Shown piece by piece: positions 394 through 34,372 of a DNA stretch of 64,000 bases. Under the pieces are notes generated by a model. It was not told where the DNA came from and searched no databases. It saw nothing but the letters and a program-made list of their open reading frames with translations. Positions within the stretch are counted from its first letter, which is position 1; each line of letters opens with the position of its first letter. Source of the DNA: a virus; IMG/VR virus record IMGVR_UViG_3300002461_000841, positions 503 through 64,502 of that record. The stretch is one strand, 5' to 3'. A program made the translations under genes and the position numbers.

Positions 394-767
394 GCAAGTC
401 CCCCTACGGCGCGCTCCTCCGACGGAGATCACGCCTTGCTGCGGTCGAATCACGAGCGGTTGCTTACCGACAAGCAAGCCGCGAACGTGACCGCTCACAT
501 GTAGATCGAGCGCCCATGCACGCGCAAGATTTTCTCGTGCTGAATTTTGCTGCGGTGATCTGCCCGCCCGAAAAGACATCAGCCGGTTAGGCCTTCCCCC
601 GATCAAGCTCAAGCCCTCTCAGGCGAGATCGATCAGGTTCCAGCCTACCGGCCAACGTGCTGCATGGCGGGACCGGGGCAGCACCCGGGCTTCTGGCTCA
701 GCTCGGCGGAGGCGCGTAGGAAGGACTACGCGATCCTTTCACCGCACCGAACCCCCCTACCTCGTGA

Positions 768-1304
768 CTAGGCGCGCCGGGCGGAACCCTGCGCCTTCGC
801 GGCCCCATTGGCGGGGGCCTTGTTGGTCACCGGCGGCGCCTTGACCTCGGCCTTCGGCGGCGGCGCATCCTCGAGCGGCTGCTCGTTGATGACGTTCGCG
901 AACACGCCCGCCTCGCGCGGGTTGCCGTTCTGATCGACGCCGGGCTTGCCCTCCTCGTGAACCACGGTGCCGGTGATCTGCTGGCCCATGATCTGCGAGG
1001 CCTGGAACGACGCGAGGCTCGCGCCACACGCCACCATGAGCTGCTTGAGCCGGCCCGCGCCGGGCTTCGTCGTGTAGTTGTAGTTGTTGTAGGCGCGCTG
1101 CCCCTGGCACTCGCCCTCGGCGACCTCGAACGCGACCGAGATCATCGGGTTGCCGTTGTTCGAGTTCTTGTTCTCGACGTTCACGATGGTGAACTTGTAG
1201 TCCCCCGGCGGCACGAGAGGGCGTCTTTCGCCACCCCACGCCTGGACATCATCACCACTGAGATCGAGCTCGACGTTGAAGTCATTGAATTCCTGTTCGG
1301 CCAT
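768..1304 (-). CDS. DUF669-like phage ssDNA-binding protein
   Basis: LVPPGDYKFTI...GNPMISVAFEV pattern, low-complexity tail, next to a Sak4-like ATPase. Confidence 0.7.
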   Translation of the reverse strand: MAEQEFNDFNVELDLSGDDVQAWGGERRPLVPPGDYKFTIVNVENKNSNNGNPMISVAFEVAEGECQGQRAYNNYNYTTKPGAGRLKQLMVACGASLASFQASQIMGQQITGTVVHEEGKPGVDQNGNPREAGVFANVINEQPLEDAPPPKAEVKAPPVTNKAPANGAAKAQGSARRA

Positions 1305-20234: not shown

Positions 20235-20468
20235 CTACTTGCCGAGAGCGCTCGCGATGAGGCCGACGGTGAGCGCCACCACGAACGAGCCGCCACCGAC
20301 GAGCCCGATCAGGTCCCACCGGATGCGCGCTGACGTGATGGGCGCGCCGAGCCCGGCGAGCCGCGCGAAGTCACGCTGGTACGGGTTCATGACGACGGTG
20401 GCGCCGGCGAACTGCACCGTCGTGGTGCCGGGCGCGACGCCGACCGACTGCGCGAAACGGATGGCCAT
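20235..20468 (-). CDS. Small C-anchored protein carrying a copy of the putative capsid N-terminal motif
   Basis: VGVAPGTTTVQ; TAGGCT 6 nt before ATG; C-terminal TM. Confidence 0.65.
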   Translation of the reverse strand: MAIRFAQSVGVAPGTTTVQFAGATVVMNPYQRDFARLAGLGAPITSARIRWDLIGLVGGGSFVVALTVGLIASALGK

Positions 20469-20483
20469 GGGCTTAGCCTACCA

Positions 20484-20684
20484 TTAGCGCGCACGTCGCC
20501 GTTCGATACCGCAGGCTTCACTCTTGGCCGTGCGTTCGCTACGCACCATGAACGGAGTCCCACCACGTTCAAAGACCTGCCACAGACCCCGCTTGAACTG
20601 CGTGATCTTGACGTTGCCTTGCTTGGTCGTGAACTGCTTTTGGGTGGTGGTGCTGGTGTTACGGAGCGCGCACTGTTTGGCCAT
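20484..20684 (-). CDS. Small basic protein
   Basis: K/R-rich; TAGGCT 6 nt before ATG. Confidence 0.55.
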   Translation of the reverse strand: MAKQCALRNTSTTTQKQFTTKQGNVKITQFKRGLWQVFERGGTPFMVRSERTAKSEACGIERRRAR

Positions 20685-20693
20685 GCGCTCAGC

Positions 20694-20942
20694 CTACCAC
20701 TTGAACGGTAGGTGCTGCGTGCGCTTGTAGGCGATGAACCCGAGCCCGAGCCCTAGGCCGCCGACGAGGAGCGAACCGAGAATGTATGGCTCGATCGAGG
20801 CCTTGATGGTCGGGATGGCTTCCTCAGCGCCTGCCTTCGCTTGCGCGCGAATGTAGGCCTCGAACTCGGCGAGCTTCCGGTTGACGTTGGCGCCGCCAGG
20901 GATGAGCGCCAAGAGTTCCTTGAGGTCATCCTGAACCGCCAC
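20694..20942 (-). CDS. Small C-anchored protein
   Basis: Ends PYILGSLLVGGLGLGLGFIAYKRTQHLPFKW. Confidence 0.6.
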   Translation of the reverse strand: MAVQDDLKELLALIPGGANVNRKLAEFEAYIRAQAKAGAEEAIPTIKASIEPYILGSLLVGGLGLGLGFIAYKRTQHLPFKW

Positions 20943-20945
20943 GGG

Positions 20946-21224
20946 TTAGCCCTTGCTGCGCTTGTAGAGCTTGTAGCCGCCGAACGCGATGAGCGCGAGC
21001 CCGACGATGACAAGCCACGTCGGGAGCTGGCGGCCGAAGATGGTCATCGTTCCGCTCGAGGCGCTTCCCGCCGAGGCGCCCTGGGGCCAGAAGCCAGGGG
21101 TCACCGTCGGCGCTTGCGAGGCGAACAGGTTGCCCACGATGGTGTGGGTGGCCGCTGCGTTGAACGTCGCGGCGGTTGGAATGGCTCCGAGCTGGGAATC
21201 GTCGACGGGCTTCATGATCATCAT
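20946..21224 (-). CDS. Small C-anchored protein
   Basis: Ends PTWLVIVGLALIAFGGYKLYKRSKG. Confidence 0.6.
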   Translation of the reverse strand: MMIMKPVDDSQLGAIPTAATFNAAATHTIVGNLFASQAPTVTPGFWPQGASAGSASSGTMTIFGRQLPTWLVIVGLALIAFGGYKLYKRSKG

Positions 21225-21226
21225 AG

Positions 21227-21466
21227 CTACTTGACCTTCTTCTTGTAGAGCGCGACACCGCCGACGCCGCCGGCAACGAGGAGGCCGATGCCCCACCACT
21301 TCTTGTACCAGGGCGTTGTCGCCGCGTTGATCGCGGCCTGGATGTTGGCCCCCGCAGCGGCGAACACCTGCTTGGGCTGGGATTGGTAGAATGCGACGCA
21401 GACGGGGTCATTCGGCGCGATCGCGCAGATGTCCGTCTCGCCGAGCGAGCGCCCCATGAGCAGCAT
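21227..21466 (-). CDS. Small C-anchored protein
   Basis: Ends PWYKKWWGIGLLVAGGVGGVALYKKKVK; TAATG coupling. Confidence 0.6.
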   Translation of the reverse strand: MLLMGRSLGETDICAIAPNDPVCVAFYQSQPKQVFAAAGANIQAAINAATTPWYKKWWGIGLLVAGGVGGVALYKKKVK

Positions 21467-21963
21467 TACGCTGCCGCCTTGCGCGGGGCCAGCACGAGCT
21501 TGTACGTGCCGAAGCCGAGGAGCGCGATGAGCACGATGCCGATGGGCGTCTTGTACCAGCCCGGCGCGAAGAACCCGACCGTGGTCGGCGTCGGCGCTGT
21601 GGGGGTGGTCGGCGCCGGGGGGTTCTGGCGGAACTTCACGGCCGCCGTGTTCGCGGCGACGGTGAGGGGGCCCGCGTACTGCGTGATCAGCGACTTCGCC
21701 TGTGAGGTGCTGCCGCCAACCGCGAGGCCAGCCTGCAGCACGACGTAGAGCCATGTCGGAAGCTGTTCGGAGAGGAGCCCAAGTGCGGCGGTCACGGCCG
21801 CGATGGTCTGGGATCCGACGATGCCGTCGATCGGCCCAGGGTTGATAGCGGGGCGAAGGGTCGCTTTCGCGAGGTTCGCGAGCGCGGTCTGCAGGCCAGA
21901 CACCGACGATGAGCCGCCGAGCTGGACGCCATGCCCCGCATCTTGAAGGCCGTAGTGCAACAT
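21466..21963 (-). CDS. Peptidoglycan-binding-domain protein with C-terminal anchor
   Basis: VSGLQTAL...PGPIDGIVGSQTIAAV (PG_binding_1 pattern); C-terminal TM. Confidence 0.65.
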   Translation of the reverse strand: MLHYGLQDAGHGVQLGGSSSVSGLQTALANLAKATLRPAINPGPIDGIVGSQTIAAVTAALGLLSEQLPTWLYVVLQAGLAVGGSTSQAKSLITQYAGPLTVAANTAAVKFRQNPPAPTTPTAPTPTTVGFFAPGWYKTPIGIVLIALLGFGTYKLVLAPRKAAA

Positions 21964-21990
21964 GGCCCTCAGCCTATCACGAGTCGCGCG

Positions 21991-23466
21991 TTAGCTTTTG
22001 CCGCTCGCTAGGATGGCCCCCGCCGCGAGTGCGCCACCGACGATGATGGGCCACGGGACGGTAGACGCCGCTTCGGTGGTCTCGGTGAACTCTTCGGGGA
22101 TCGGGGTTGGCGCGGGCGGCTGGGTCCAGAATTTACACCACGTCGAGATGGCGACATTGGCGGCCGTCACGGCGGCCTGCTCGGCGCTCGTCGGTGGGGT
22201 GCACTTGCAGAGGGCCTCACCCGGCTTGCACGTCTTGCCAGTGCTCTGATTTGAGCAAAGCGTCGACGCCAGCGAGGTGTTGTGCGACTGGATCGCGGTC
22301 TGGTTGGCGCAGATCATGTCGCCCATGGACCGCATCAGGCTAGCGAGCCCGTCGATGGCATCCTGATACCAGGCCTTGTCGTAGGGCGTGATCTTGAACG
22401 TGTAGCGCCGCGCGGCCCCGACGATCACGGAGATGTTGCGATAGCCCCCCATGGCGACGTTCAACCGGAAGGCTTGGCCGTCCTTGGTCTTGCAGAACTC
22501 GTGGCCCTTCTTGTTCGGTCCGCGCCCGAACGTCGGCATGAACTTCGTTTGTGCTGGGTACTCGCCACGAAGCACCGTGGCGTCGAGGAAGTAGCCGCCG
22601 CGCTCGAGGTACGCGAGGGCGCCCCCCTGATTTTTGCGTTCGGAGATCGAGGGGGCGATTGGGTTCAAGCTGTAGCCGGGGTAGTCGACAACCCAGCGAC
22701 CACTGGCGAGGAGCTCGTCAACAGAGTGAAACTTGGTGACCGTCTCGAGGCGCCCGCCGCCGGCGGTGTAGATCTTGACCCCTTTCGAGAACACGTTAAC
22801 GAGGCCTGATGGGCGGCTCGCCGATCCGGTCAGGTTGTCTTCGATACCGTCATCATTCAGGTCCCAGTCGATCTGGTCGCCGAACACGTCACGCGTGATG
22901 TTCGCCTGCGATCGAATGTAGAGCTGGAAGTCGACGGCGAACTGTTGATCGGTCGTGAGTGTTTGGGCAGTAGTGAACGCTTCGGTCTGCAAGCTCGTGA
23001 TCGGGAACGCGACTGTGTTCCAGGCGAAGAAGCCGTAGGGCACAAGCAACGTGTCGATCCCAAAGCTGCCGGCGGTGTAGGGCCATCCGTAACGGTACGG
23101 GGTGCTGAAACTCTTGGCGTTCGATCCGCAGTCCACCGTGGCCACGGCGGCAAGCGCGCGGCTAACAGCCTTGAGGCGTTCGGCGCGCTTCAACACGAAC
23201 TGGCCGTGTGCACGCTGGATCTCGGCGCGGGTGTCGCCGGCCGTCGAGATCTTGGGCATGCACATGAACCCGTTGGGGCCCGGAGTGCCGGGGACGCCGG
23301 CGCGCGCGCGCTGCCAGTGGCCCGCTACGGTGGCCGTAGCCGTTGCCCATGTGTACCCGGGGGGCGGATTCCCACAGGCGACCTCGGTCGCATTGGGGGT
23401 AGATGCTGCCGCGGCAATGACCTGGGCGGCATCGGCGCCGTCCTTGATGAAGTCGAAAAGGCCCAT
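21991..23466 (-). CDS. Large C-anchored putative virion protein with Cys-rich segment
   Basis: LCSNQSTGKTCKPGEALCKC...WCKFW; ends VPWPIIVGGALAAGAILASGKS. Confidence 0.65.
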   Translation of the reverse strand: MGLFDFIKDGADAAQVIAAAASTPNATEVACGNPPPGYTWATATATVAGHWQRARAGVPGTPGPNGFMCMPKISTAGDTRAEIQRAHGQFVLKRAERLKAVSRALAAVATVDCGSNAKSFSTPYRYGWPYTAGSFGIDTLLVPYGFFAWNTVAFPITSLQTEAFTTAQTLTTDQQFAVDFQLYIRSQANITRDVFGDQIDWDLNDDGIEDNLTGSASRPSGLVNVFSKGVKIYTAGGGRLETVTKFHSVDELLASGRWVVDYPGYSLNPIAPSISERKNQGGALAYLERGGYFLDATVLRGEYPAQTKFMPTFGRGPNKKGHEFCKTKDGQAFRLNVAMGGYRNISVIVGAARRYTFKITPYDKAWYQDAIDGLASLMRSMGDMICANQTAIQSHNTSLASTLCSNQSTGKTCKPGEALCKCTPPTSAEQAAVTAANVAISTWCKFWTQPPAPTPIPEEFTETTEAASTVPWPIIVGGALAAGAILASGKS

Positions 23467-23504
23467 CGGTGATGTCAGCCTATCACGTGGTACGCTCGAC
23501 CTTT

Positions 23505-25178
23505 ATGAAGCCCATCTCGGCGCAGCAGCGCAATCAGGTCGCATGGGTCTCGGGCGCCGCGGGTGTCGCCCTCCTCATCCTCGGCGGTGCGATGTACGCC
23601 CGCGAGCGCAAGCTTGGCCGCTCCGGGGGCGGACTTGGGCGCGGCGCGCGCGTCGCGCAGGCCCCGATCCTGAACACGTACTCCGACGGCAACATGCGCG
23701 CGGTGCTCCGCGGCGCGCCCGAGATGCCGATCGAGCAGCGCGTGGCGACGATTCAGGAGCTCATCGAGAAGTCGATCCAGGATCCGCAGATGCGCAAGGT
23801 CGCGCTCGAGGCCACGCGCAACTGCCCCGAGCGCGATGGGCTATGCGAGGCCAAGGCGATCTACGACTACGTCAAGAAGCGCGTCCGCTACACGGGCGAC
23901 ATCGCGCCGATCAAGTGGGCCGATGGCACCGTCGATGGCGTCGACCTCTACCAGACCGCGCGCCGCACGCTCGAGTTCGGTGGGGGTGACTGCTTGCCGA
24001 TCTCCGCACTCGTTCTGACCGACAACTACGAGCTGGTGCCGCTCATCGAGCTGGAGCCCGGACACCGCATCATGGGTGATGGCGGTTGGGCGACAGTGCA
24101 GGATCGCTGGCTGACGGGCGAGAAGCGTCTGCTCGCGTTCGAGCTCTCGAACGGGTGCGTGCTGCGCTGCACGCCCGAGCATCGCATCTTCCGCAACGTC
24201 GCCGGGCGCGTCGAGGAGATTCGTGCGAGCGAGGCGCGTCCTGGCGATGACCTCGTGATGGCCGACAAGATTCCAGTGGCCGGCGAGGATGGCCACGAGT
24301 GGCCAGAGGTCGCGCGGGGGCTCACCGACGACGAGCGCTCGTGGTTGCTCGGTACGTTCGTCGCTGACGGATGGGCCGATGGGAAACAGACCAAGGAAGG
24401 CTTTGCGCCATACCGCATCGGCATCTCCGGCCGTGACGGGCAGCTCAAGGAAGCGCAGAAGCGTGAAGTCGAGGCGCTCATGGCCAAGATCGGCGTCGCT
24501 ACGCGTTGGCATGAGAAGTACATCGCGGTCAACGATTCGGCGTTGGCGTGCTTCTTCGCGGGTGCCGGCAAGCTCGCGCGTAACAAGCACGTGCAGTCGC
24601 TCAAGCAAGTTTCCGAGGATCAGGTCCACGCACTCATCCGGGGCCTAGCTGCGGACGCTGACAACCGCAATGGTGTGTTCGGTACGACATCCGTGAAGCT
24701 CGCGTTGCAGCTTCGGGTGCTCCATCGCATGGTCGGATTCGGTACGCACATCAGTCGCGTCGACAACCACGGCGGGCTCGGAACGCATCCGGTTTATCGG
24801 GTGACGCCGCGCTTTGTCGCCGAGCGGCGTGATCATGAGTTCGCACGGATTCGTGCCATCGCTGATGGTGGCGTGGAGCTCTGCATGGACCTCACCACCG
24901 ACACGGGCAAGTTCTGGTTGCCAGAGTCGGACGTGCTCGTGCACAACTGTGACGACCACACGATCCTCACGTCGACCCTGCTCGCGCTCAACGGCGTCAC
25001 GCCGCGGATCCGCGTGACCAAGGAGTCGCGTCGCGGCGACTGGTCGCACATCTACGTCGGGGCGCTCCTGCCGAAGTTCGGCGCCGGCAAGTTCGTCGCC
25101 GTCGACACCACGCTGCCGGGTGACGCGAGTTTCGGCGTTGAAGCTCCGTACGCCAAGCACGTCGATTTCGACGCGTAG
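23505..25178 (+). CDS. Membrane-anchored transglutaminase-like (papain-fold) enzyme interrupted by an intein
   Basis: N-terminal TM; spliced GGD|CDD, WSHIY, VDTT give a Cys-His-Asp triad. Confidence 0.8.
   Translation: MKPISAQQRNQVAWVSGAAGVALLILGGAMYARERKLGRSGGGLGRGARVAQAPILNTYSDGNMRAVLRGAPEMPIEQRVATIQELIEKSIQDPQMRKVALEATRNCPERDGLCEAKAIYDYVKKRVRYTGDIAPIKWADGTVDGVDLYQTARRTLEFGGGDCLPISALVLTDNYELVPLIELEPGHRIMGDGGWATVQDRWLTGEKRLLAFELSNGCVLRCTPEHRIFRNVAGRVEEIRASEARPGDDLVMADKIPVAGEDGHEWPEVARGLTDDERSWLLGTFVADGWADGKQTKEGFAPYRIGISGRDGQLKEAQKREVEALMAKIGVATRWHEKYIAVNDSALACFFAGAGKLARNKHVQSLKQVSEDQVHALIRGLAADADNRNGVFGTTSVKLALQLRVLHRMVGFGTHISRVDNHGGLGTHPVYRVTPRFVAERRDHEFARIRAIADGGVELCMDLTTDTGKFWLPESDVLVHNCDDHTILTSTLLALNGVTPRIRVTKESRRGDWSHIYVGALLPKFGAGKFVAVDTTLPGDASFGVEAPYAKHVDFDA
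23991..24947 (+). mobile_element. 319-aa intein with LAGLIDADG-type endonuclease region
   Basis: Starts CLPIS, block B CTPEHRIF, LLGTFVADG and IRGLAADAD, ends VLVHN followed by Cys. Confidence 0.92.
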
Positions 25179-25394
25179 CTAGCGCTTGCAGGCGACCGCG
25201 GCGCGCGCGCCCTTGGTCGTGATCTCGTAGTGCTTGCTCTTGGGCGAAATGCGCTTGATGTAGCCGCCTCGCACGAGCTTGCTGACCGATCCTTTGGGGG
25301 CGCGGCGCGAGATGTCGCTCGCCGGGAAGGAATGCCCCCGTTGAAGCGAAATGGTGCGAGCGAGCTGCAGCAGCGAGCAACTGACGTTTGCCAT
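25179..25394 (-). CDS. Small basic protein, winged-helix-like
   Basis: VSKLVRGGYIKR...YEITTKG; TACGTT 5 nt before ATG. Confidence 0.5.
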   Translation of the reverse strand: MANVSCSLLQLARTISLQRGHSFPASDISRRAPKGSVSKLVRGGYIKRISPKSKHYEITTKGARAAVACKR

Positions 25395-25424
25395 GCCTCA
25401 ACGTAACACGATAGGCTGAGCACC

Positions 25425-25841
25425 ATGTTTCAGCTCGCCGGTACCGAGATCGAGACCAGCACGCTCAACTCCGAGATTGATGGCCTGATCAGCCGCTACG
25501 GCGACCCCAGCCGGGTCGATAGCTCGGCGGTCGCCAACTTCCTCGAGCTGTACCCCGCCAGCCAGCGTGACCTTGTCGGGCGCGCGCTGGTCGGCAAGGG
25601 CATCTCGAACGTCGCTGTCGCCAACGCGCTCCGGTGGAACGACACCACGAGCGCGTTCGCGCGGAACAAGAGCACGATCCTCGGCGTGCTCTCGCTCGCG
25701 AGCGCGGCAGCGTGCGGCTTCCACGGCTACCGCCGCAACAACTCGTACGGCTGGGCGGCGGCCTGGTTCATCCTCGGGGGCATCTTCCCCGTGTTCACCC
25801 CTGTCGTGGCCCTTGCCCAAGGGTTTGGCAAGCCCAAGTAG
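25425..25841 (+). CDS. Membrane protein with two C-terminal helices
   Basis: TAGGCT 7 nt before ATG; two hydrophobic segments around YRRN. Confidence 0.65.
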   Translation: MFQLAGTEIETSTLNSEIDGLISRYGDPSRVDSSAVANFLELYPASQRDLVGRALVGKGISNVAVANALRWNDTTSAFARNKSTILGVLSLASAAACGFHGYRRNNSYGWAAAWFILGGIFPVFTPVVALAQGFGKPK

Positions 25842-25863
25842 CCTCGTGATAGCGTAAGCGCTC

Positions 25864-26193
25864 ATGGCGAAGAACACCTTCATGAGTGGCCGGCTCAAGA
25901 TCAACGTCGGCTTCAACGATCGCACTGATTCCTATCGGGTGCGGTTGTGCCCGACCCCGGTGACGCGTCCGGCGAACCGCAAGGAGTTCCCGTGCCAGAC
26001 CGTGACGGTGAGCCTACCCAAAGCCGGCGCGCGTAGCCGCCATGGCAAACGTCTGGCCGTCGACGATCCACGCGCATTCATGAGCGCCGCGAAGGCTGGT
26101 ATCTCGTTCGCGCGGCAGGACATCCAAGACTTCGCTGATTGGAAGGGGCACGGCGCTGTCGTGCGCCCGCCGAAGCGCAAGCGTCGCCGGTAG
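25864..26193 (+). CDS. Basic hypothetical protein
   Basis: TGaTAGCGT 8 nt before ATG; ends PPKRKRRR. Confidence 0.6.
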   Translation: MAKNTFMSGRLKINVGFNDRTDSYRVRLCPTPVTRPANRKEFPCQTVTVSLPKAGARSRHGKRLAVDDPRAFMSAAKAGISFARQDIQDFADWKGHGAVVRPPKRKRRR

Positions 26194-26216
26194 CCGCTCG
26201 TGGTACCCTGGGCGGC

Positions 26217-26447
26217 ATGCTGATCGCCAAGCCCGTCGCCACCATCATGCCGCACGAGTCCACCCAGCTCTCGGGGCCGCGCCTCGGCTACGTGAGCGCG
26301 CAGGAGTGGCTCGGCGCGCCGCCTGCCGGCAGCCTCGCCGGCGTGTTCGATTCGTGGGCCTGGACCAACCGCAAGTGGCTCGCGCTCGGCGGCGTCGGCC
26401 TCGTCCTCGCCGCGATCGGGACCGCGCTCACCGGCGGCCTCAAGTAG
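26217..26447 (+). CDS. Small C-anchored protein
   Basis: TGgTACCCT 7 nt before ATG; ends KWLALGGVGLVLAAIGTALTGGLK. Confidence 0.6.
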   Translation: MLIAKPVATIMPHESTQLSGPRLGYVSAQEWLGAPPAGSLAGVFDSWAWTNRKWLALGGVGLVLAAIGTALTGGLK

Positions 26448-26810
26448 ATGCTGCGCTACGGGCTCAACGGGCACCGCACACCGGGGCTCGGATCGACGTT
26501 CACCGACGCGCAGGCGATTGCCGATGCCCTCGAGCGCGATCCGAACGGTGAAGGCTTCGAGCGGGCGTTCGCGATCCTCGCCAACTACGTCGGCGGGGAC
26601 CTGCAGCTCGTAGCGAACAAGGCGATCGCGCTCGGGGCGCGCCCAGACCTGATCAAGATCATGCTCGATAGCCTAGGCGGCGAGACGATCGAGGTGGTCG
26701 GGACCGCGCCGAGCTCGACGGCGGTGAAGGTCGGCAAGCTCGCGCTCGGTGCCGCCATCGTTGCTGGCCTCGGCGCGGGGCTTGTCGCCTACTCGCGGCG
26801 TGGGGCGTAG
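26448..26810 (+). CDS. C-anchored protein
   Basis: Ends KLALGAAIVAGLGAGLVAYSRRGA. Confidence 0.6.
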   Translation: MLRYGLNGHRTPGLGSTFTDAQAIADALERDPNGEGFERAFAILANYVGGDLQLVANKAIALGARPDLIKIMLDSLGGETIEVVGTAPSSTAVKVGKLALGAAIVAGLGAGLVAYSRRGA

Positions 26811-27382
26811 CTGATCGTGACGCCGTTGAAGTTCACGTAGCTGTCGCGTTGAGCCCAATGCGTCGCCGGGCCGGTACCGAATACAACCTGATGTCGGGCG
26901 GCGTCGTAGTTCTGGTAGTTCGTGAACACGACAAGCACCGGGGTGTATGCACGGGCTTGGATCGCGTCGAACGGTATGTGCGGCTGATAGGCGCCGAACA
27001 GCACCATTTGGTTTGAGCGTTCCTCGGGGCAGCTTCGCGATCCGAACACGGCGGGCGCGTCGGGGTCATCTGGGCGCGTCATGCCGAACGCCCAACGATT
27101 GGCGTCGTAGAACGAGACCACGCCACGAGTGAACGTGTTGGGGATGCCCGAGAACACCATCGGCGGCTCCGTCTCGCGATGGTTCTGGAAGAAGGCCTTG
27201 TTGTAGGCGCTACCGTGCGTACCGCACCCAGTGAATTGCACGATCGTGGGCCCGATCGGGGTCTCGCCGATCTTGTTGGCGAGTAGCTCCTCGAGCTTGA
27301 TGACGACGTAGCCGCTGCCCACGATGTGGTGAAACCCTCCGGGGCACTCGCGCAGCACGCTGAGGGCGTCGGCCCACGCCAT
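26789..27382 (-). CDS. Hypothetical protein
   Basis: Globular composition; TGATG coupling. Confidence 0.55.
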   Translation of the reverse strand: MAWADALSVLRECPGGFHHIVGSGYVVIKLEELLANKIGETPIGPTIVQFTGCGTHGSAYNKAFFQNHRETEPPMVFSGIPNTFTRGVVSFYDANRWAFGMTRPDDPDAPAVFGSRSCPEERSNQMVLFGAYQPHIPFDAIQARAYTPVLVVFTNYQNYDAARHQVVFGTGPATHWAQRDSYVNFNGVTISYAPRRE

Positions 27383-27774
27383 CAGTTGAGCCGCTCGGGT
27401 GCGACCTCGCGCGGCGCGACTTCGCCGTGCGTTAGCGTGAGCTGATCGGTCAGCATCTTGACCACGTGCTCGGTCGAGAGTTTGGTCTCGTTGCAGTAAG
27501 CGCTGATCGCGAGCACGAGCGTGCGCGTGGCGTCCGTGGGGAACAGGATCAGTGCATCAGCGCCCGTGACCTCCTCAGGCAGCCCCAACGCTTCGGCCAT
27601 GAGCGTCGCGCCGGCCGTCGTCACGAACGTGGCGAACTCCTGCGCCTGGGCCTTCGTCGAGAGCTGCATCACGCCGCGGCGAATGGCCGCGTCAACACTA
27701 GCGATGGCCGTGCGACGGCGGCGTGCGAGCGTCGACACGACGCGGCGCTTGCGCTTGGTGATCGGTTTGGCCAT
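27382..27774 (-). CDS. Hypothetical protein, basic N-terminus
   Basis: Box+TAGCGT 7 nt before ATG 27774. Confidence 0.55.
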   Translation of the reverse strand: MAKPITKRKRRVVSTLARRRRTAIASVDAAIRRGVMQLSTKAQAQEFATFVTTAGATLMAEALGLPEEVTGADALILFPTDATRTLVLAISAYCNETKLSTEHVVKMLTDQLTLTHGEVAPREVAPERLN

Positions 27775-27781
27775 GGGGAGA

Positions 27782-27809
27782 ACGCTATCACGTAGGCCTG
27801 ACAGGCCTA
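27782..27809 (-). promoter_or_regulatory. TGWCA-box promoter within a perfect 17-bp dyad
   Basis: TAGGCCTG-A-CAGGCCTA; CTGTCA-11-TAGCGT, ATG 7 nt later. Confidence 0.65.
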
Positions 27810-28382
27810 GCGGCGGTTTCTCCGCTGCATCGACGCGATCACGTCCTCGGGCACGTAGCGCAGCGTGCGCCCGCCACCACGTAGCGACGGGATCTCGCCC
27901 GCCTTCGTCATGCGGCGCACCGTAGGTACGCTGACGCCAAGAATCTCGGCCATGCGCTCGATGTCGACGACGGCCTCGTTGATGCCGCCCGGGTGCGTGG
28001 CCGCTAGCAGCTCTTGGATCGCCGCTTGGCCGATGTGCTGGATGTACGCAAGGAGATCCGCCACCGGATGGAACCAATCATCGCGAATGCGCGCCGCCTC
28101 ATACTGTTCACCGATCGCCTCGGCGTGCTCGAGGGGCGTCATGGTCGAGACGAGCCCAATCAGCATCGGGTCGAACGGGTTGTCACGTGCGAGCTCAGCG
28201 AGCCGGCGGCCGATGTGCGTGCCCTTGGCGCCCTCGATCTTGATCGGGCCTGCACCGCCGGGCGGCGAGACCTGGACGAACATCACCCACGCTTGCCCGT
28301 TGCCGCTCGCGTGGGGCGCGAATGCGGAGGCAGTGGTCGGGCTGACGATGAGCATTGGGGACGCGTGATCACTCGTGATCAA
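27807..28382 (-). CDS. Degenerate T5orf172/GIY-YIG-like domain fused to an excisionase-type HTH
   Basis: GPIKI...RRLAEL...RIRDDWF; MAEILGVSVPTVRRMTKAGEIP...LRY. Confidence 0.6.
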   Translation of the reverse strand: MITSDHASPMLIVSPTTASAFAPHASGNGQAWVMFVQVSPPGGAGPIKIEGAKGTHIGRRLAELARDNPFDPMLIGLVSTMTPLEHAEAIGEQYEAARIRDDWFHPVADLLAYIQHIGQAAIQELLAATHPGGINEAVVDIERMAEILGVSVPTVRRMTKAGEIPSLRGGGRTLRYVPEDVIASMQRRNRR

Positions 28383-28474
28383 TCGAGCCGCCCCCGGCGC
28401 GAATGGATTCGACTAGTTGAGCATCTACGAGTGAGCATGCGTCGTCAAATGCCTACGTAACCAATTGGAATGAT

Positions 28475-28503
28475 TTGACATTTCACTCACGTGCGCGTAG
28501 TGT
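28475..28503 (+). promoter_or_regulatory. Consensus sigma70-type promoter for the capsid cluster
   Basis: TTGACA-17 nt-TAGTGT, ATG 8 nt downstream. Confidence 0.75.
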
Positions 28504-28511
28504 TCTTGACC

Positions 28512-28901
28512 ATGGCGCTCATCATTCGGCAGGACAACCCGGGCTCGCCCATCCGTCCGGATCGCGTCTACGCGACGGGGGTCATCTCGCCGATGAGCGG
28601 ATTCTATCCGCCGAGCTCTGCCCAGCGTGTGCTACAGGCGTTCACGTCCGGCGCGCTGGGCTCGCCGACACTCATGGGGCCCCTCGCGCGCCTCGGGTAC
28701 CGCGTGCGTGCGTTCTTCGCCGCGCGGCGCGCCCGTGCCTTCTCGAACCTCTCCGGCGGCAACGTCGAGGCGCTCCACGCGCAGCGCGTGGCGCCGCAGA
28801 TCGCGCAGCAGGTTCGTGTCCTCGATCGCATCGCGTCGGGCCCCGCGGGCTCGTCGTCGGCGATGGTCGCGCGCAGCAACATCTTTGGGCGTCGGTACTA
28901 G
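28512..28901 (+). CDS. Putative virion protein
   Basis: First gene after the consensus promoter. Confidence 0.55.
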   Translation: MALIIRQDNPGSPIRPDRVYATGVISPMSGFYPPSSAQRVLQAFTSGALGSPTLMGPLARLGYRVRAFFAARRARAFSNLSGGNVEALHAQRVAPQIAQQVRVLDRIASGPAGSSSAMVARSNIFGRRY

Positions 28902-28904
28902 GTC

Positions 28905-29087
28905 ATGGCGAAGGTCATGACGCTCTCTGGCGCCGGTGACCTCGGTGCCCCGCCCAAGCAGGGCGAATGCAAGATGGTCTGCAACACGCGTACGGGGCGC
29001 GCCGCGAAGCTCTGCTTTGTCGGGAAGTCCTCGAAGAATCGAAGCGGCTGGCAGTTCGTAAAGGGCGGCGGCCAGCGCTGCAAGTAA
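28905..29087 (+). CDS. Small basic Cys-containing protein
   Basis: 4 Cys, K/R-rich. Confidence 0.5.
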   Translation: MAKVMTLSGAGDLGAPPKQGECKMVCNTRTGRAAKLCFVGKSSKNRSGWQFVKGGGQRCK

Positions 29088-29128
29088 GTCCGTCACCCTC
29101 AACCCCAGTCAAGGAAGGTACACGTCAA

Positions 29129-29707
29129 ATGGCTCAGCTCCGCGGTTCCGTCAACCTGCTCGGTCTCAACGCCTACGGGCAGAACCCGGGCATGAACCCG
29201 ATCTTCGGCACGCTCATCGGCGGCGGCACTGCGGCTGTCACGACGATCGCGCTCCGCCACACCGGCACCACGAACAACCCCGAGTTGTTCGGGCTCCTCG
29301 GCGGCCTCGCGGCGTCCGGCCTCATGTTCTCGATGAAGTCGACGCGCCACGCGGCGCTCGGCTCGGCGGTTGGCGCGTTCTTCGCGGCCGGCGTGGCCTG
29401 GCTCGAGAAGACCCTCTTCGGCGCGCAGACCGTTGCCGTGCCGGGCGTCGGTATCCCGACGATTCGCGGTCTCGGCATCCCCGCCGCGCGGCAGCTCAAC
29501 GGCGTCGGGATCCCGAACATCTCGAACGTGAGCTCGCCCGTGGGCGTTGCCGGCAACCAGCTCGCGCAGCCGGGGCACTCCTCGCCGCCCGTGAGCCTAC
29601 TCGGCACGCAGTCGCCGCAGGCGGCGCAGCTCCGCGGCATGGGCGGCCCGACGACGCACGGCCTCTCGGCGGCGTACGGCGCGACGCTCATGGGCATGGG
29701 CCGCTAA
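29129..29707 (+). CDS. Gly-rich multi-pass membrane protein
   Basis: AAGGAAGG SD; three hydrophobic segments. Confidence 0.65.
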   Translation: MAQLRGSVNLLGLNAYGQNPGMNPIFGTLIGGGTAAVTTIALRHTGTTNNPELFGLLGGLAASGLMFSMKSTRHAALGSAVGAFFAAGVAWLEKTLFGAQTVAVPGVGIPTIRGLGIPAARQLNGVGIPNISNVSSPVGVAGNQLAQPGHSSPPVSLLGTQSPQAAQLRGMGGPTTHGLSAAYGATLMGMGR

Positions 29708-29741
29708 CGCGACCCTGATCGAATCGCACTAGTTGTCTCTT

Positions 29742-29850
29742 CACGAGCGCCTCGGCGCTCGTGGGCCGAGCACCGATGAGGGTGCCATCGCGCGGGCGTC
29801 GTAGCCCGCTCGGCCCGCTGTTGCCTTCGCGAAGGGGACGTCCCCTCCGC
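29742..29850 (+). promoter_or_regulatory. Structured intergenic leader of the putative capsid gene
   Basis: Hairpin 29742-29763, three-way junction 29763-29816, hairpin 29829-29850. Confidence 0.45.
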
Positions 29851-29888
29851 GCGGGCGCGAACCTGTAATTTTTCAAGGAGAAGAAGAC

Positions 29889-30596
29889 ATGGCCGGCACT
29901 GTTGGTGTTGCTCCCGGAACCACGACCATCCAGATGGCGGATGGCAAGACCATCTCGATCGAGGACTGGATCGACGACAAGCTGTACTCGACGGTGCAGC
30001 TCGTGAATGCGCAGAGCTCGCCCGTCGAGGCGTTCATCGCTGGCCGCAGCCAGCCGATCTCGGGCGGCACGCGCGCGTCCACCCAGGTCGACACGAACGT
30101 TCCGCGCTCGGGCGACTCGGGTCTCATGCAGTCGTGGGAGATGTACATCTACTCCCTCTGCGTGTCCCCGGTCCGCGTGATGCGTCCGCCCACCGGCGCC
30201 GCGAACCCGACCCTGGCCGATGGCTCGGGCGCGCTCTCGAACGTCCCGACGCTGCAAACGCTGCTCTCGGTCGATCGCGTCACGTACCTCAAGTTCCGCT
30301 ACAACGAGAAGGACTACTCGTACGGCGTGATGTCCGACTACCCGGCGGGCAAGGGGTACTCGGTGTTCTCGACCAACGCGATCTTCGAGAACGCGAACAA
30401 CGGCGTCCCGTCGCCGCGCGACCGGCAGGCGCTCGTGCTGCCCATCTGGCTCCGCGAGAACCTCGCGTACAAGATGAGCTTCGCGCCCGAGGCGCCCCTG
30501 GTGATCAACCAGGCGGCGTCGGATGGCCAGACGGCACTGACCTTCATGGACGTGAAGACGTCCGCGTACGGTCTGATCCGCCGCAACGTGACCTAG
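29889..30596 (+). CDS. Putative major capsid protein, single jelly-roll-like
   Basis: Beta-rich alternation (LYSTVQL, WEMYIYSLCV, YLKFRY, LPIWL, VKTSAYG); strong AAGGAG SD; own terminator; no HK97 signature. Fold not verified. Confidence 0.55.
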   Translation: MAGTVGVAPGTTTIQMADGKTISIEDWIDDKLYSTVQLVNAQSSPVEAFIAGRSQPISGGTRASTQVDTNVPRSGDSGLMQSWEMYIYSLCVSPVRVMRPPTGAANPTLADGSGALSNVPTLQTLLSVDRVTYLKFRYNEKDYSYGVMSDYPAGKGYSVFSTNAIFENANNGVPSPRDRQALVLPIWLRENLAYKMSFAPEAPLVINQAASDGQTALTFMDVKTSAYGLIRRNVT

Positions 30597-31800: not shown

Positions 31801-32340
31801 ATGAGCGATACCGAGTTTCCGATGAACGCGCCCGCAGGTACGGCCCCCGGCGGGAAGGGTCTGCCGATCCTCGGGCGCATCCCGTGGGCGATGTCCGGCG
31901 AGATGACCGTGACTTCCGCGATGCCTCCGACCCAGTTGCCGAGTGCGACCTTCGCGAACAACTTCTCCAAGACGTTCGAGATCCACGAGATCACGTTCGC
32001 GTGCGTCGGGCTCGACAACAACGGCGTCGCGTTGCCCCTCAAGACCCAGCCCAGCCAGTTCGCGCTGCAGAGCATGGTGCGCGTGTTCTTCCAGGACTTG
32101 CTGTTCACGCAGCCGCTCACCAAGGTGGCGACGAAGATCGCCACGCTGACCGAGGGTGACGCTACCAATCGGTGGCGCTGGAAGGCGCCGTACAACCTGC
32201 GCAACCAGGGCAACATCGTCGCCACGCTCGAAGGCCTCACGTTTCCGAGCGGCGAGAGCGTCGATCTGATCAGCATTGCCGTTGTGATCACGTTCAAGGG
32301 CTACTTGCTCGTGCAGGGTACGGGCGACTTCACGCCGTAA
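31801..32340 (+). CDS. Putative second/minor capsid protein, jelly-roll-like
   Basis: Beta-rich (FEIHEITF, VRVFFQD, WKAPYNL, VVITFKGY); TAGGAT 9 nt before ATG. Confidence 0.45.
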   Translation: MSDTEFPMNAPAGTAPGGKGLPILGRIPWAMSGEMTVTSAMPPTQLPSATFANNFSKTFEIHEITFACVGLDNNGVALPLKTQPSQFALQSMVRVFFQDLLFTQPLTKVATKIATLTEGDATNRWRWKAPYNLRNQGNIVATLEGLTFPSGESVDLISIAVVITFKGYLLVQGTGDFTP

Positions 32341-34006: not shown

Positions 34007-34372
34007 ATGAGCAGCGGCAACGATCTCGTTCACGTCAAGGCGATGATCATCGTGTTCGCGATGAAGGATTGCCCCCATTGCGAGGAGTACAAGCCGCTCC
34101 TTGAGCGCGAGCTCAAGCGCTTCCAGGCTGCCGGGTTCCCGTTCGACATCTACGACGGGAAGATGGTGCCGCCGGGGCGCATCCCGGTGCTGTTCCTCGA
34201 CGCGACGACGCCGGATCCGACCATCCAGAAGCTCATGGACGACTATGGCGTCGAGGGGGTGCCGGTGACGCTCCTGCTCACGCGGAGCGCGAGGCCGTGG
34301 AAGCACGAGGGCCCCCTGCCTCCCGATCAAATCTACGAGTTGCTGCATTCTGCAGCGCTAGCGAATCGCTGA
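34007..34372 (+). CDS. Thioredoxin-fold oxidoreductase
   Basis: DCPHC active site; YGVEGVP cis-Pro loop. Confidence 0.8.
   Translation: MSSGNDLVHVKAMIIVFAMKDCPHCEEYKPLLERELKRFQAAGFPFDIYDGKMVPPGRIPVLFLDATTPDPTIQKLMDDYGVEGVPVTLLLTRSARPWKHEGPLPPDQIYELLHSAALANR

Follow-up and report, generated by a model that had tools for sequence, protein, structure and literature searches.

It is only partly known how an icosahedral shell is brought into register with an internal membrane, even in PRD1 and the sphaerolipoviruses, where unidentified or weakly assigned membrane proteins lie beneath the capsomers. In PRD1, a membrane-containing phage whose capsid protein is a double jelly roll, the small proteins P16 and P30 act as cement between capsomers or connect the vertex with the internal membrane, P16 being anchored at its N-terminus. 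We know of no capsid-arm mimicry by P16 or P30.

In HCIV-1 (Sphaerolipoviridae), the N-terminus of VP7 runs beneath the jelly roll of a neighbouring VP4, and three VP7 per asymmetric unit are unpaired (PMC6414509). The small membrane proteins VP13 and VP10 lie beneath the capsid, over the membrane, and set the position of capsomers or pentons; VP13 (8.8 kDa) has a C-terminal membrane helix and lies under the penton (PMC6414509). In Sindbis capsid crystals, Leu108 and Leu110 of the arm occupy a hydrophobic pocket of the neighbouring capsid protein, and the same pocket is held to take the cytoplasmic tail of the membrane protein E2, linking core and envelope (PMC3522669). In vaccinia, the N-terminus of A17 tethers the double jelly-roll lattice of D13 to the crescent membrane; D13 makes no lipid contact itself and has its own N-terminal arm at its base (PMC3169552).

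In the window examined here, which is the whole 64-kb stretch of viral DNA, a small tail-anchored protein and a jelly-roll protein that is likely the major capsid protein carry nearly the same peptide close to their N-termini. The features are as follows.

20235..20468, minus strand: gene of the 77-aa tail-anchored protein (ORF; GC3 0.94; family of 26 aligned relatives)
20244..20312, minus strand: predicted C-terminal transmembrane stretch, residues ~53-75 (mean Kyte-Doolittle 2.22, hydropathy window)
20412..20444, minus strand: anchor copy of the peptide, VGVAPGTTTVQ, residues 9-19 of the 77-aa ORF
23469..25178, plus strand: gene of a membrane-anchored transglutaminase-like (cysteine-protease fold) protein, intein-interrupted (weak Pfam matches)
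28967..29707, plus strand: gene of a 246-aa glycine-rich membrane protein, immediately upstream of the capsid gene
29875..29880, plus strand: ribosome-binding site AAGGAG, 8 nt before the start of the capsid gene, read from the sequence
29889..30596, plus strand: gene of the 235-aa jelly-roll protein (AlphaFold2 pLDDT 88, pTM 0.81)
29901..29933, plus strand: capsid copy of the peptide, VGVAPGTTTIQ, residues 5-15 of the 235-aa protein
31801..32340, plus strand: gene of a second jelly-roll protein, 179 aa (AlphaFold2 pLDDT 81), 1.2 kb downstream of the capsid gene

Like HCIV-1, HHIV-2 and SH1, this virus has two genes for single jelly-roll proteins, the likely major and a candidate second capsid protein, known here from genes and models, and the 235-aa and 179-aa models match the capsid chains of HCIV-1 and HHIV-2 (Z 6.5-7.6). 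The 77-aa protein resembles VP13 and VP10 of HCIV-1 in being small, having one predicted membrane helix and being encoded in the structural module. In contrast to HCIV-1, the arm is on the larger capsid protein here and on the smaller one there, and in the searched text of PMC6414509 no membrane protein is said to resemble a capsid arm in sequence. The principle of one pocket for the protein's own arm and for a segment of a membrane protein would be shared with the alphavirus capsid, but there unrelated sequences resemble each other in a hydrophobic pattern of two residues, whereas here the likeness is a conserved, co-evolving peptide of 9-11 residues; moreover, alphaviruses are enveloped RNA viruses with a chymotrypsin-like capsid protein, whereas here the capsid protein has a jelly-roll fold and an internal membrane is proposed. 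As with vaccinia A17, the N-terminal region of an integral membrane protein would attach a jelly-roll lattice to the membrane. Unlike the present case, PMC3169552 reports no copy of the D13 arm sequence in A17, and D13 is a transient scaffold of a eukaryotic virus, removed after protease cleavage of A17.

The peptide shared by the anchor and the likely capsid protein

The two peptides are identical at ten of eleven residues (VGVAPGTTT(V/I)Q), as the sequence-only reading had noticed, and the likeness extends further than it had noted: BLASTP of the 77-aa against the 235-aa protein aligns 15 of 30 residues as identical (E 2e-5), and a comparison of the anchor and capsid family profiles aligns their N-termini (probability 95.4%, E 1.9e-8). 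A six-frame scan of the 64 kb allowing up to four mismatches found these two sites alone. Outside the spike paralogues (38.6-47.3 kb), this is the sole case of strong N-terminal sharing between two genes of the window, and no other ORF copies the N-terminal sequence of the 179-aa protein, which reads MGRLP... in relatives; this indicates that the mimicry is specific to the 235-aa protein. The ORF of the 77-aa protein, for which no strand had been given before, is on the minus strand.

The 77-aa protein consists of the N-terminal motif, a 35-aa linker, one predicted transmembrane stretch and a tail of six residues. The hydrophobic stretch begins at residue 53, in agreement with the C-terminal anchoring that had been read from this ORF, and is preceded by a conserved RIRWD, of which RWD is nearly invariant in the family. 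In the alignment of 26 relatives, the motif is the best-conserved block (G10, V11, P13, G14 and T17 are invariant), and the rest of the protein diverges to ~30% identity. A possible start codon is always found 3-21 residues from the motif, or 3-16 residues if an ATG is chosen as the start; linker length ranges between 31 and 163 aa, and a tail of 2-8 aa follows the membrane stretch. Judged from sequence, a conserved motif, a very variable linker and a tail anchor are the architecture that a tether would need. The membrane topology is ambiguous, as the side before the membrane stretch is more positive in 23 members and the C-terminal tail in 13.

Anchor relatives were collected by way of the capsid gene and from the protein database, a search for related loci with the 77-aa protein alone having found none. 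Pfam and PHROG searches (E up to 0.01) gave no family match for the protein, and its 20 database relatives all lack a protein name; no homology to a described linker protein was found, and a cluster look-up yielded neither names nor hosts. The gene is located 9.4 kb from the capsid gene among conserved genes for small membrane proteins, and it has the same place in relatives. It lacks a ribosome-binding site like that of the capsid gene and has TAGGCT 7 nt upstream of its ATG; this contrast, as read from the two sequences, suggests different expression levels. One genome has a second, N-terminally damaged anchor copy, and another has three motif carriers.

The sequence-only reading had staked its proposal on co-conservation of the two motifs across homologues, and this was found: 25 distinct related genomes, two of them complete, proved to have a second carrier, and in every one both proteins have the motif near the N-terminus. 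The two copies also co-vary. At four variable core positions, 56 of 64 anchor-capsid comparisons match, against 44.5 expected, and none of 100,000 shuffles gave as high a number. Six derived states are shared by the two copies where 1.06 are expected (P 8e-5). On the capsid-protein tree, five of the six independent changes in the capsid motif are paired with an anchor change at the same position, and in four of these five the same residue was reached (Y/Y, plus S/S at three positions). The Ser change in the capsid motif of L011 has no anchor partner, and several anchor changes are likewise unpaired.

At the codon level, seven of the eleven identical residues in a 14-residue stretch around the motif are encoded differently in this genome, and GC3 of this stretch is 1.00 in the anchor copy and 0.57 in the capsid copy. 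That the codons differ, and hence that conservation is at the protein level, had been claimed for this pair and holds more widely. In every genome, from 4/9 to 11/11 of the identical residues have different codons, and GC3 differs between the two copies in 15 of 16 genomes. The matching Ser residues of L007 are encoded by AGC and TCG, indicating that they arose separately. The Tyr of L006 and L007 is encoded by TAC in both copies, with flanking codons that differ at third positions. These codon patterns indicate that the motif is kept at the protein level and not through recent gene conversion.

Among distant capsid homologues, the VGVAPG arm is absent in L104 and L106 and has the variant form LVGVPPGTTV in L108. 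No second ORF copying its own capsid N-terminus was found in these three, whose contigs are only 7-18 kb long, so that this absence says little.

The jelly-roll proteins and their neighbours

AlphaFold2 predicts an all-beta jelly roll for the 235-aa protein. We assigned the fold by an exhaustive VIA-align search of 48,161 solved chains, in which the top three matches were SPV1 6oj0_T (Z 7.9; rmsd 3.4, 140 residues aligned), HHIV-2 6h82_b (Z 7.0) and HCIV-1 6h9c_D (Z 6.8), all capsid proteins of membrane-containing viruses. In BFVD, SPV1 VP4 stood at rank 2 (probability 0.99), and no Foldseek match in PDB or BFVD reached E 1e-3. Scores this middling (Z below 8, Foldseek E above 1e-3) place the protein in the jelly-roll fold class and do not prove kinship with membrane-containing viruses, and the label of capsid protein therefore rests on fold class, conservation and context. 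The gene is the most conserved of its module (63-76% identity across loci), and V-G-x-x-P-x-x-x-T is kept in 72 distinct capsid sequences. For scanning, an alignment of 15 capsid sequences took the place of one of 41, which was too diverse. The protein is thus likely the major capsid protein, an identity that had been put forward from the sequence and that the resemblance to capsid proteins of internal-membrane viruses supports.

The monomer model shows little order in residues 1-10 and has a strand beginning at residue 13; residues 11-24 pack on the protein's own body (pLDDT 82-85), so that a vacant acceptor site is assumed rather than seen. When columns of the capsid body were searched for co-variation with positions 7, 10 and 12 of the motif, the signals were clade-wide only and no clear pocket candidate emerged. 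A complex prediction of two 235-aa copies, the 179-aa protein and anchor residues 1-50 (own alignments, without controls) scored 0.00, which speaks neither for nor against docking.

The model of the 179-aa protein matches the EhV-201 capsid protein (Z 7.7) and HCIV-1 6h9c_D (Z 7.6, rmsd 3.5 over 127 residues), and its gene is conserved and syntenic in 15 loci. On the basis of this model the protein is a candidate for a second capsid protein or penton, and it is a possible acceptor of the arm. The glycine-rich membrane protein is conserved in all seven of the first loci (43-55% identity), gave no match in Pfam or PHROG, and might be a third-party receptor. The product of 23469..25178 has Pfam scores below the cut-offs (Intein_splicing 24.3 bits, cut-off 35.8; Transglut_core 19.7, cut-off 23; LAGLIDADG_3 16.8, cut-off 22.5); its N-terminal part is kept in 7/7 loci, and a Transglut_core gene is also found near distant capsid homologues.

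Two uses of the motif were considered and set aside. Glycosylation of the Thr run is disfavoured by changes of the middle Thr to Tyr, Ile or Ser. A role as glutamine substrate of a transglutaminase would require the Gln at the end of the motif, which is not conserved in the capsid proteins and is mostly replaced there by Thr.

A proposed shared acceptor site and its alternatives

The sequence patterns suggest that both peptides use one acceptor site of the capsid lattice and that the anchor attaches capsomers to an internal membrane or nucleates them there, a reading to which we give a probability of about one half. On this reading, the N-terminal module of the two genes is homologous and consists of a short, extended arm, VGVAPG(T/S)xT, that leads into the first beta-strand. 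In the 235-aa jelly roll this module would serve as the arm of the capsid protein itself; the small protein would carry it on a linker of free length that leads to the C-terminal membrane anchor. The acceptor site would be on a neighbouring 235-aa copy or on the 179-aa protein, and the anchored arm would fill those sites to which no capsid arm extends. Sites so filled would pin capsomers to the internal membrane or start assembly there. A tether by arm mimicry was what the sequence-only reading had proposed; co-conservation and co-variation, the jelly-roll fold and the conserved tail-anchored family speak for it, and we infer the docking of the arm on a capsid subunit, the use of the same site by the anchored arm and the presence of a membrane in the virion.

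A third viral factor, such as a chaperone, the glycine-rich membrane protein or the transglutaminase-like enzyme, might instead recognise both peptides, in which case the motif would be an address tag or a processing site. Co-variation to the same residue is equally expected if both peptides are ligands of one outside site; distant relatives, too, have the transglutaminase-like gene together with the capsid gene, whose conserved neighbour encodes the 246-aa membrane protein, and in vaccinia there is a precedent for a protease that acts on a membrane tether, as I7 cuts the A17 N-terminus by which the D13 lattice is held (PMC3169552). Processing is nevertheless at odds with the variable residue before the motif (T, S, A, Y, F, K, N, R, V, M or G in capsid proteins and S, T, N, Y, R, H, W or G in anchors), and in some anchors just two residues precede the motif, so that removal of a leader would achieve little. 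We consider recognition by a third factor unlikely. Less likely again is that the small protein is a regulator, a membrane-bound decoy arm that competes with capsid arms and need not be present in the virion; such a decoy would hold capsid subunits at the membrane, delay closure of the shell or block the assembly of a co-infecting relative. The same sequence evidence for binding at one site applies to it, the weaker ribosome-binding context of the anchor gene suggests lower amounts, and the damaged second copy in one genome and the three carriers in another suggest turnover. The anchor gene is, however, within the conserved block of small membrane-protein genes beside the capsid genes in every genome, and its retention in all paired genomes fits a core structural role.

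That the likeness has no shared function, being a relic of a partial duplication at the 5' end of the capsid gene that occasional short gene conversion has kept alike, or a chance match, is very improbable. An old conversion event could explain the shared TAC codons in L006 and L007, and in a genome of 65% GC the residues Gly, Ala, Pro and Thr are common. Nonetheless, the motif outlasts the divergence of the remaining anchor protein, codons differ throughout (including the Ser codons of L007 and the third positions flanking TAC), and both the two-site result in 64 kb and the profile E value are set against chance; the conservation, codon and co-variation data largely refute this explanation.

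If the tether by a shared acceptor site is real, it is another variant among the known capsid-membrane linkers, one in which the sequence itself points to the contact, as a peptide of 9-11 residues is present on both partners and co-evolves across dozens of genomes. A directly testable contact model follows from the shared peptide, as does a search rule for other uncultivated viruses, namely membrane proteins that copy a capsid arm. A bolder form of the reading, which we hold only tentatively, is that an exact copy in trans of the arm and first strand fills lattice sites that lack a donor, so that one co-evolving peptide both glues subunits together and fixes the shell to the inner membrane, in an undescribed single jelly-roll lineage whose genomes of 85-221 kb would be several times larger than any known.

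The virus group and its genomes

The 235-aa protein has the capsid fold class of the vertical single jelly-roll group (Helvetiavirae: Sphaerolipoviridae, Simuloviridae and Matsushitaviridae; Portogloboviridae: SPV1), and the nearby pair of jelly-roll genes (235 aa and 179 aa) is a character of Helvetiavirae and SPV1. The packaging ATPase of this group is of the FtsK/HerA (A32-like) type; the Pox_A32 model PF04665 gave no match in G000, G001 and G002, a result from a single model in genomes with many matchless ORFs. In giving no Pfam or PHROG match, and perhaps in lacking this ATPase, the present viruses differ from the HCIV-1 group. The window's record and two complete relatives did not match the HK97 capsid model PF05065 or the Terminase_6N model PF03237, whereas control genomes matched these two models, the only ones used; this speaks against a tailed-phage identity (HK97 capsid plus large terminase). 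The viruses are likely tailless and membrane-containing, with unusually large genomes. A lipid membrane inside the virion is indicated indirectly, by the block of conserved genes for small membrane proteins beside the capsid genes.

Single jelly-roll viruses with an internal membrane have genomes of ~16-31 kb, a range that the present genomes exceed. The family profiles give genome sizes of ~30 kb for Sphaerolipoviridae and 16-19 kb for Simuloviridae. The source record is 69,887 bp long, with an estimated completeness of 65%, and the complete relatives are of 85,269 bp (with direct terminal repeats) and 221,422 bp, compared with ~30 kb in the HCIV-1 group.

A peptide shared by an anchor and a putative capsid protein

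Two ORFs of the window, encoding a 77-aa tail-anchored protein (hereafter the anchor) and a 235-aa putative capsid protein, share the peptide VGVAPGTTT(V/I)Q near their N-termini:

20235-20468, minus strand: anchor ORF, 77 aa, with VGVAPGTTTVQ at 20412-20444
29889-30596, plus strand: capsid ORF, 235 aa, with VGVAPGTTTIQ at 29901-29933

The sequence-only reading had reported both this sharing and the differing codons behind it, and both observations were borne out. A six-frame scan permitting four mismatches found only these two motif sites in the 64-kb window. The two proteins align by BLASTP with 15 of 30 residues identical (E 2e-5), the similarity extending beyond the motif, and comparison of their family profiles aligned the N-termini at 95.4% probability (E 1.9e-8). 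Over the 14-residue stretch spanning the motif, different codons are used at seven of the 11 identical residues, and GC3 is low in the capsid copy (0.57) and high in the anchor copy (1.00). The spike paralogues at 38.6-47.3 kb aside, comparable N-terminal sharing was seen in no other gene pair of the window. The peptide sharing is confirmed and is not due to chance. VGVAPG is also identical in all six residues to the hexapeptide repeat of mammalian elastin, a unit described as turn-forming and flexible; the match is certainly a compositional coincidence.

The structural model of the 235-aa protein, based on a 41-sequence alignment, is all-beta (pLDDT 88, pTM 0.81) and shows a jelly-roll fold. 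Its family comprises 101 cluster representatives in 1.84 billion proteins. In an exhaustive alignment to 48,161 chains, the top three solved matches of the model were capsid proteins of membrane-containing viruses, namely SPV1 (Z 7.9, rmsd 3.4, 140 residues), HHIV-2 (Z 7.0) and HCIV-1 (Z 6.8), followed by P23-77 VP17 (Z 6.0). As the Z scores are of middling size and the same model found no Foldseek match at E up to 1e-3, we infer the capsid role rather than state it outright. It is nevertheless well supported, since the gene is also the most conserved of its module (63-76% identity), has a strong ribosome-binding site (AAGGAG) and lies 1.2 kb upstream of a gene for a second, 179-aa jelly roll (pLDDT 81) that matches an HCIV-1 chain at Z 7.6. 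Although genomic GC3 is near 0.9, the first dozen capsid codons (29889-29930 in the window) end in A or T (GTT GGT GTT GCT), as they do at the corresponding position of every locus; the anchor copy of the motif has G/C-ending codons. Such A/T-ending codons are typical of the 5' end of a highly expressed gene.

The anchor family consists of 20 database relatives and further copies on related viral contigs. Its best-conserved part is the motif block, with invariant G10, V11, P13, G14 and T17, and a second conserved block, RIRWD, immediately precedes the membrane stretch. In the 44 members compared, the start of the motif lies 3-16 residues from the N-terminus, except in one database ORF (residue 54). 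Linker length ranges from 31 to 163 residues, and a tail of 2-8 residues follows the membrane stretch. This layout is that of a tether, with a fixed docking end, a spacer of free length and a membrane anchor. Flanking charges point both ways on the anchor's orientation: the segment before the membrane stretch carries the greater positive charge in 23 members, the segment after it in 13. The anchor ORF has no ribosome-binding site, TAGGCT (20480-20486, minus strand) standing 7 nt before its ATG.

Conservation and change of the two copies among relatives

Using the capsid gene as query, we fetched 18 viral and 80 metagenome loci (L-numbers below). The capsid motif is retained in 72 distinct sequences, at identities down to about 44%, and 25 distinct genomes proved to have a second carrier as well, tail-anchored, which in two complete genomes lies just past the 10-kb flank. 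Co-conservation of the two copies, on which the sequence-only reading had made its case depend, thus holds across relatives.

At the four variable core positions, the two copies within a genome agreed in 56 of 64 cells, compared with 44.5 for shuffled pairings, and none of 100,000 shuffles reached 56. Shared derived states numbered 6 against 1.06 expected (P 8e-5). Because shuffles ignore relatedness, we also mapped motif changes on a tree of the capsid protein from which the N-terminal 25 alignment columns had been removed. Five of the six capsid motif changes on this tree are paired with an anchor change at the same position in the same lineage, the sole exception being a Ser in L011:

L006-L007-L052 clade: Tyr in both copies
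L007, position 7: Ser in both copies
L016, position 4: Ser in both copies
L012-L019 clade, position 6: capsid Ser with anchor Ala or Ser
L004-L005, position 8: capsid Ser with anchor Ile

The two motif copies are thus both co-conserved and co-evolving.

Additional carriers were observed at two loci. L002 has a tandem second anchor copy (about 594-830, minus strand) whose motif begins RARVAPGTTT rather than SVGVAPGTTT; it has no start codon preceding the motif and is therefore probably a decaying duplicate. L014 encodes three carrier proteins: besides the capsid protein, there is an anchor of 189 aa (VGVAPGTTTFT) and a tail-anchored protein of 297 aa that begins with the looser FGVAPGAPT. Its extra carriers are located as follows:

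L014 759-1652, plus strand
L014 5157-5726, plus strand

A candidate docking site and alternative explanations

Two peptides that repeatedly change to the same residue are most simply regarded as binding a single site. In the proposed arrangement, the N-terminal arm of the 235-aa protein would dock onto a neighbouring jelly roll, and the anchored protein would offer that arm too, from the membrane, wherever an acceptor site lacks a capsid donor, with the result that capsomers might be tethered or nucleated at the membrane. In the monomer model residues 11-24 are packed against the protein's own body, so docking of this kind presupposes an unoccupied acceptor site. The proposal of arm mimicry, in which the anchor docks in the site of the capsid arm and ties capsid to membrane, is partly supported.

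HCIV-1, among the best-studied relatives by fold, gives a concrete picture of such docking. The building block there is defined by the N-terminus of the capsid protein VP7, which passes underneath an adjacent VP4 jelly roll at its base; each asymmetric unit contains three unpaired VP7 subunits, and the space between shell and membrane is occupied by small proteins that have a C-terminal membrane helix, among them VP13 of 8.8 kDa (PMC6414509). Partial precedents of principle come from two viruses. In Sindbis virus the capsid pocket accepts the N-terminal arm of the capsid protein itself and is proposed to accept the E2 tail too (PMC3522669). In vaccinia virus it is the N-terminus of A17 that keeps the jelly-roll lattice of D13 attached to the membrane (PMC3169552). 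A conserved copied peptide is part of neither. Capsid-membrane linkage itself is known, and the version proposed here belongs to an apparently undescribed lineage of large single jelly-roll viruses.

A third factor recognising both peptides would produce the same pattern in the sequences as docking in one site. Candidates are the transglutaminase-like membrane enzyme, itself conserved, and the glycine-rich membrane protein whose gene adjoins the capsid gene; we consider this explanation rather unlikely. That the anchor instead serves as a regulatory decoy seems less probable still. The likeness might also be a functionless relic or an artefact of conversion, but the matching Ser residues of L007 are encoded by AGC and TCG, so copying of one gene into the other cannot be their source, and we regard this explanation as very improbable.

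The viral lineage and neighbouring genes

The source is a 69,887-bp IMG/VR virus record with an estimated completeness of 65%, of which the window covers bases 503-64502. Within the window GC content is 65%, no tRNA genes were found and most ORFs lack Pfam or PHROG family matches. Two relatives are complete, G001 (85,269 bp, with direct terminal repeats) and G002 (221,422 bp), and models of the HK97 capsid, Terminase_6N and Pox_A32 matched nothing in either of them or in the window's record. Viral contigs carrying the capsid gene family span 77-221 kb, several times the size of known viruses with single jelly-roll capsids, and the lineage hosting these genes looks like an undescribed group of large single jelly-roll viruses.

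Even in distant relatives, with capsid identity of 20-40%, the capsid gene still occurs together with one for a membrane-anchored transglutaminase-like protein:

23469-25178, plus strand: transglutaminase-like gene of the window
L104 802-1365, L106 1342-1971 and L108 1834-3513: copies in relatives

None of its matches to the Pfam families Intein_splicing, Transglut_core and LAGLIDADG_3 reaches the curated cut-off, and only the window's copy, and possibly the 559-aa copy of L108, is long enough for an intein. The glycine-rich membrane protein (28967-29707, plus strand), conserved directly upstream of the capsid gene, has no family match, and units resembling G(V/L)GIP recur in the C-terminal half of the protein. 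A thioredoxin-like protein (34007-34372, plus strand; PF13098, E 3.8e-5, below cut-off) is kept in the structural module of most relatives, and several of the membrane proteins adjoining its gene are Cys-rich.
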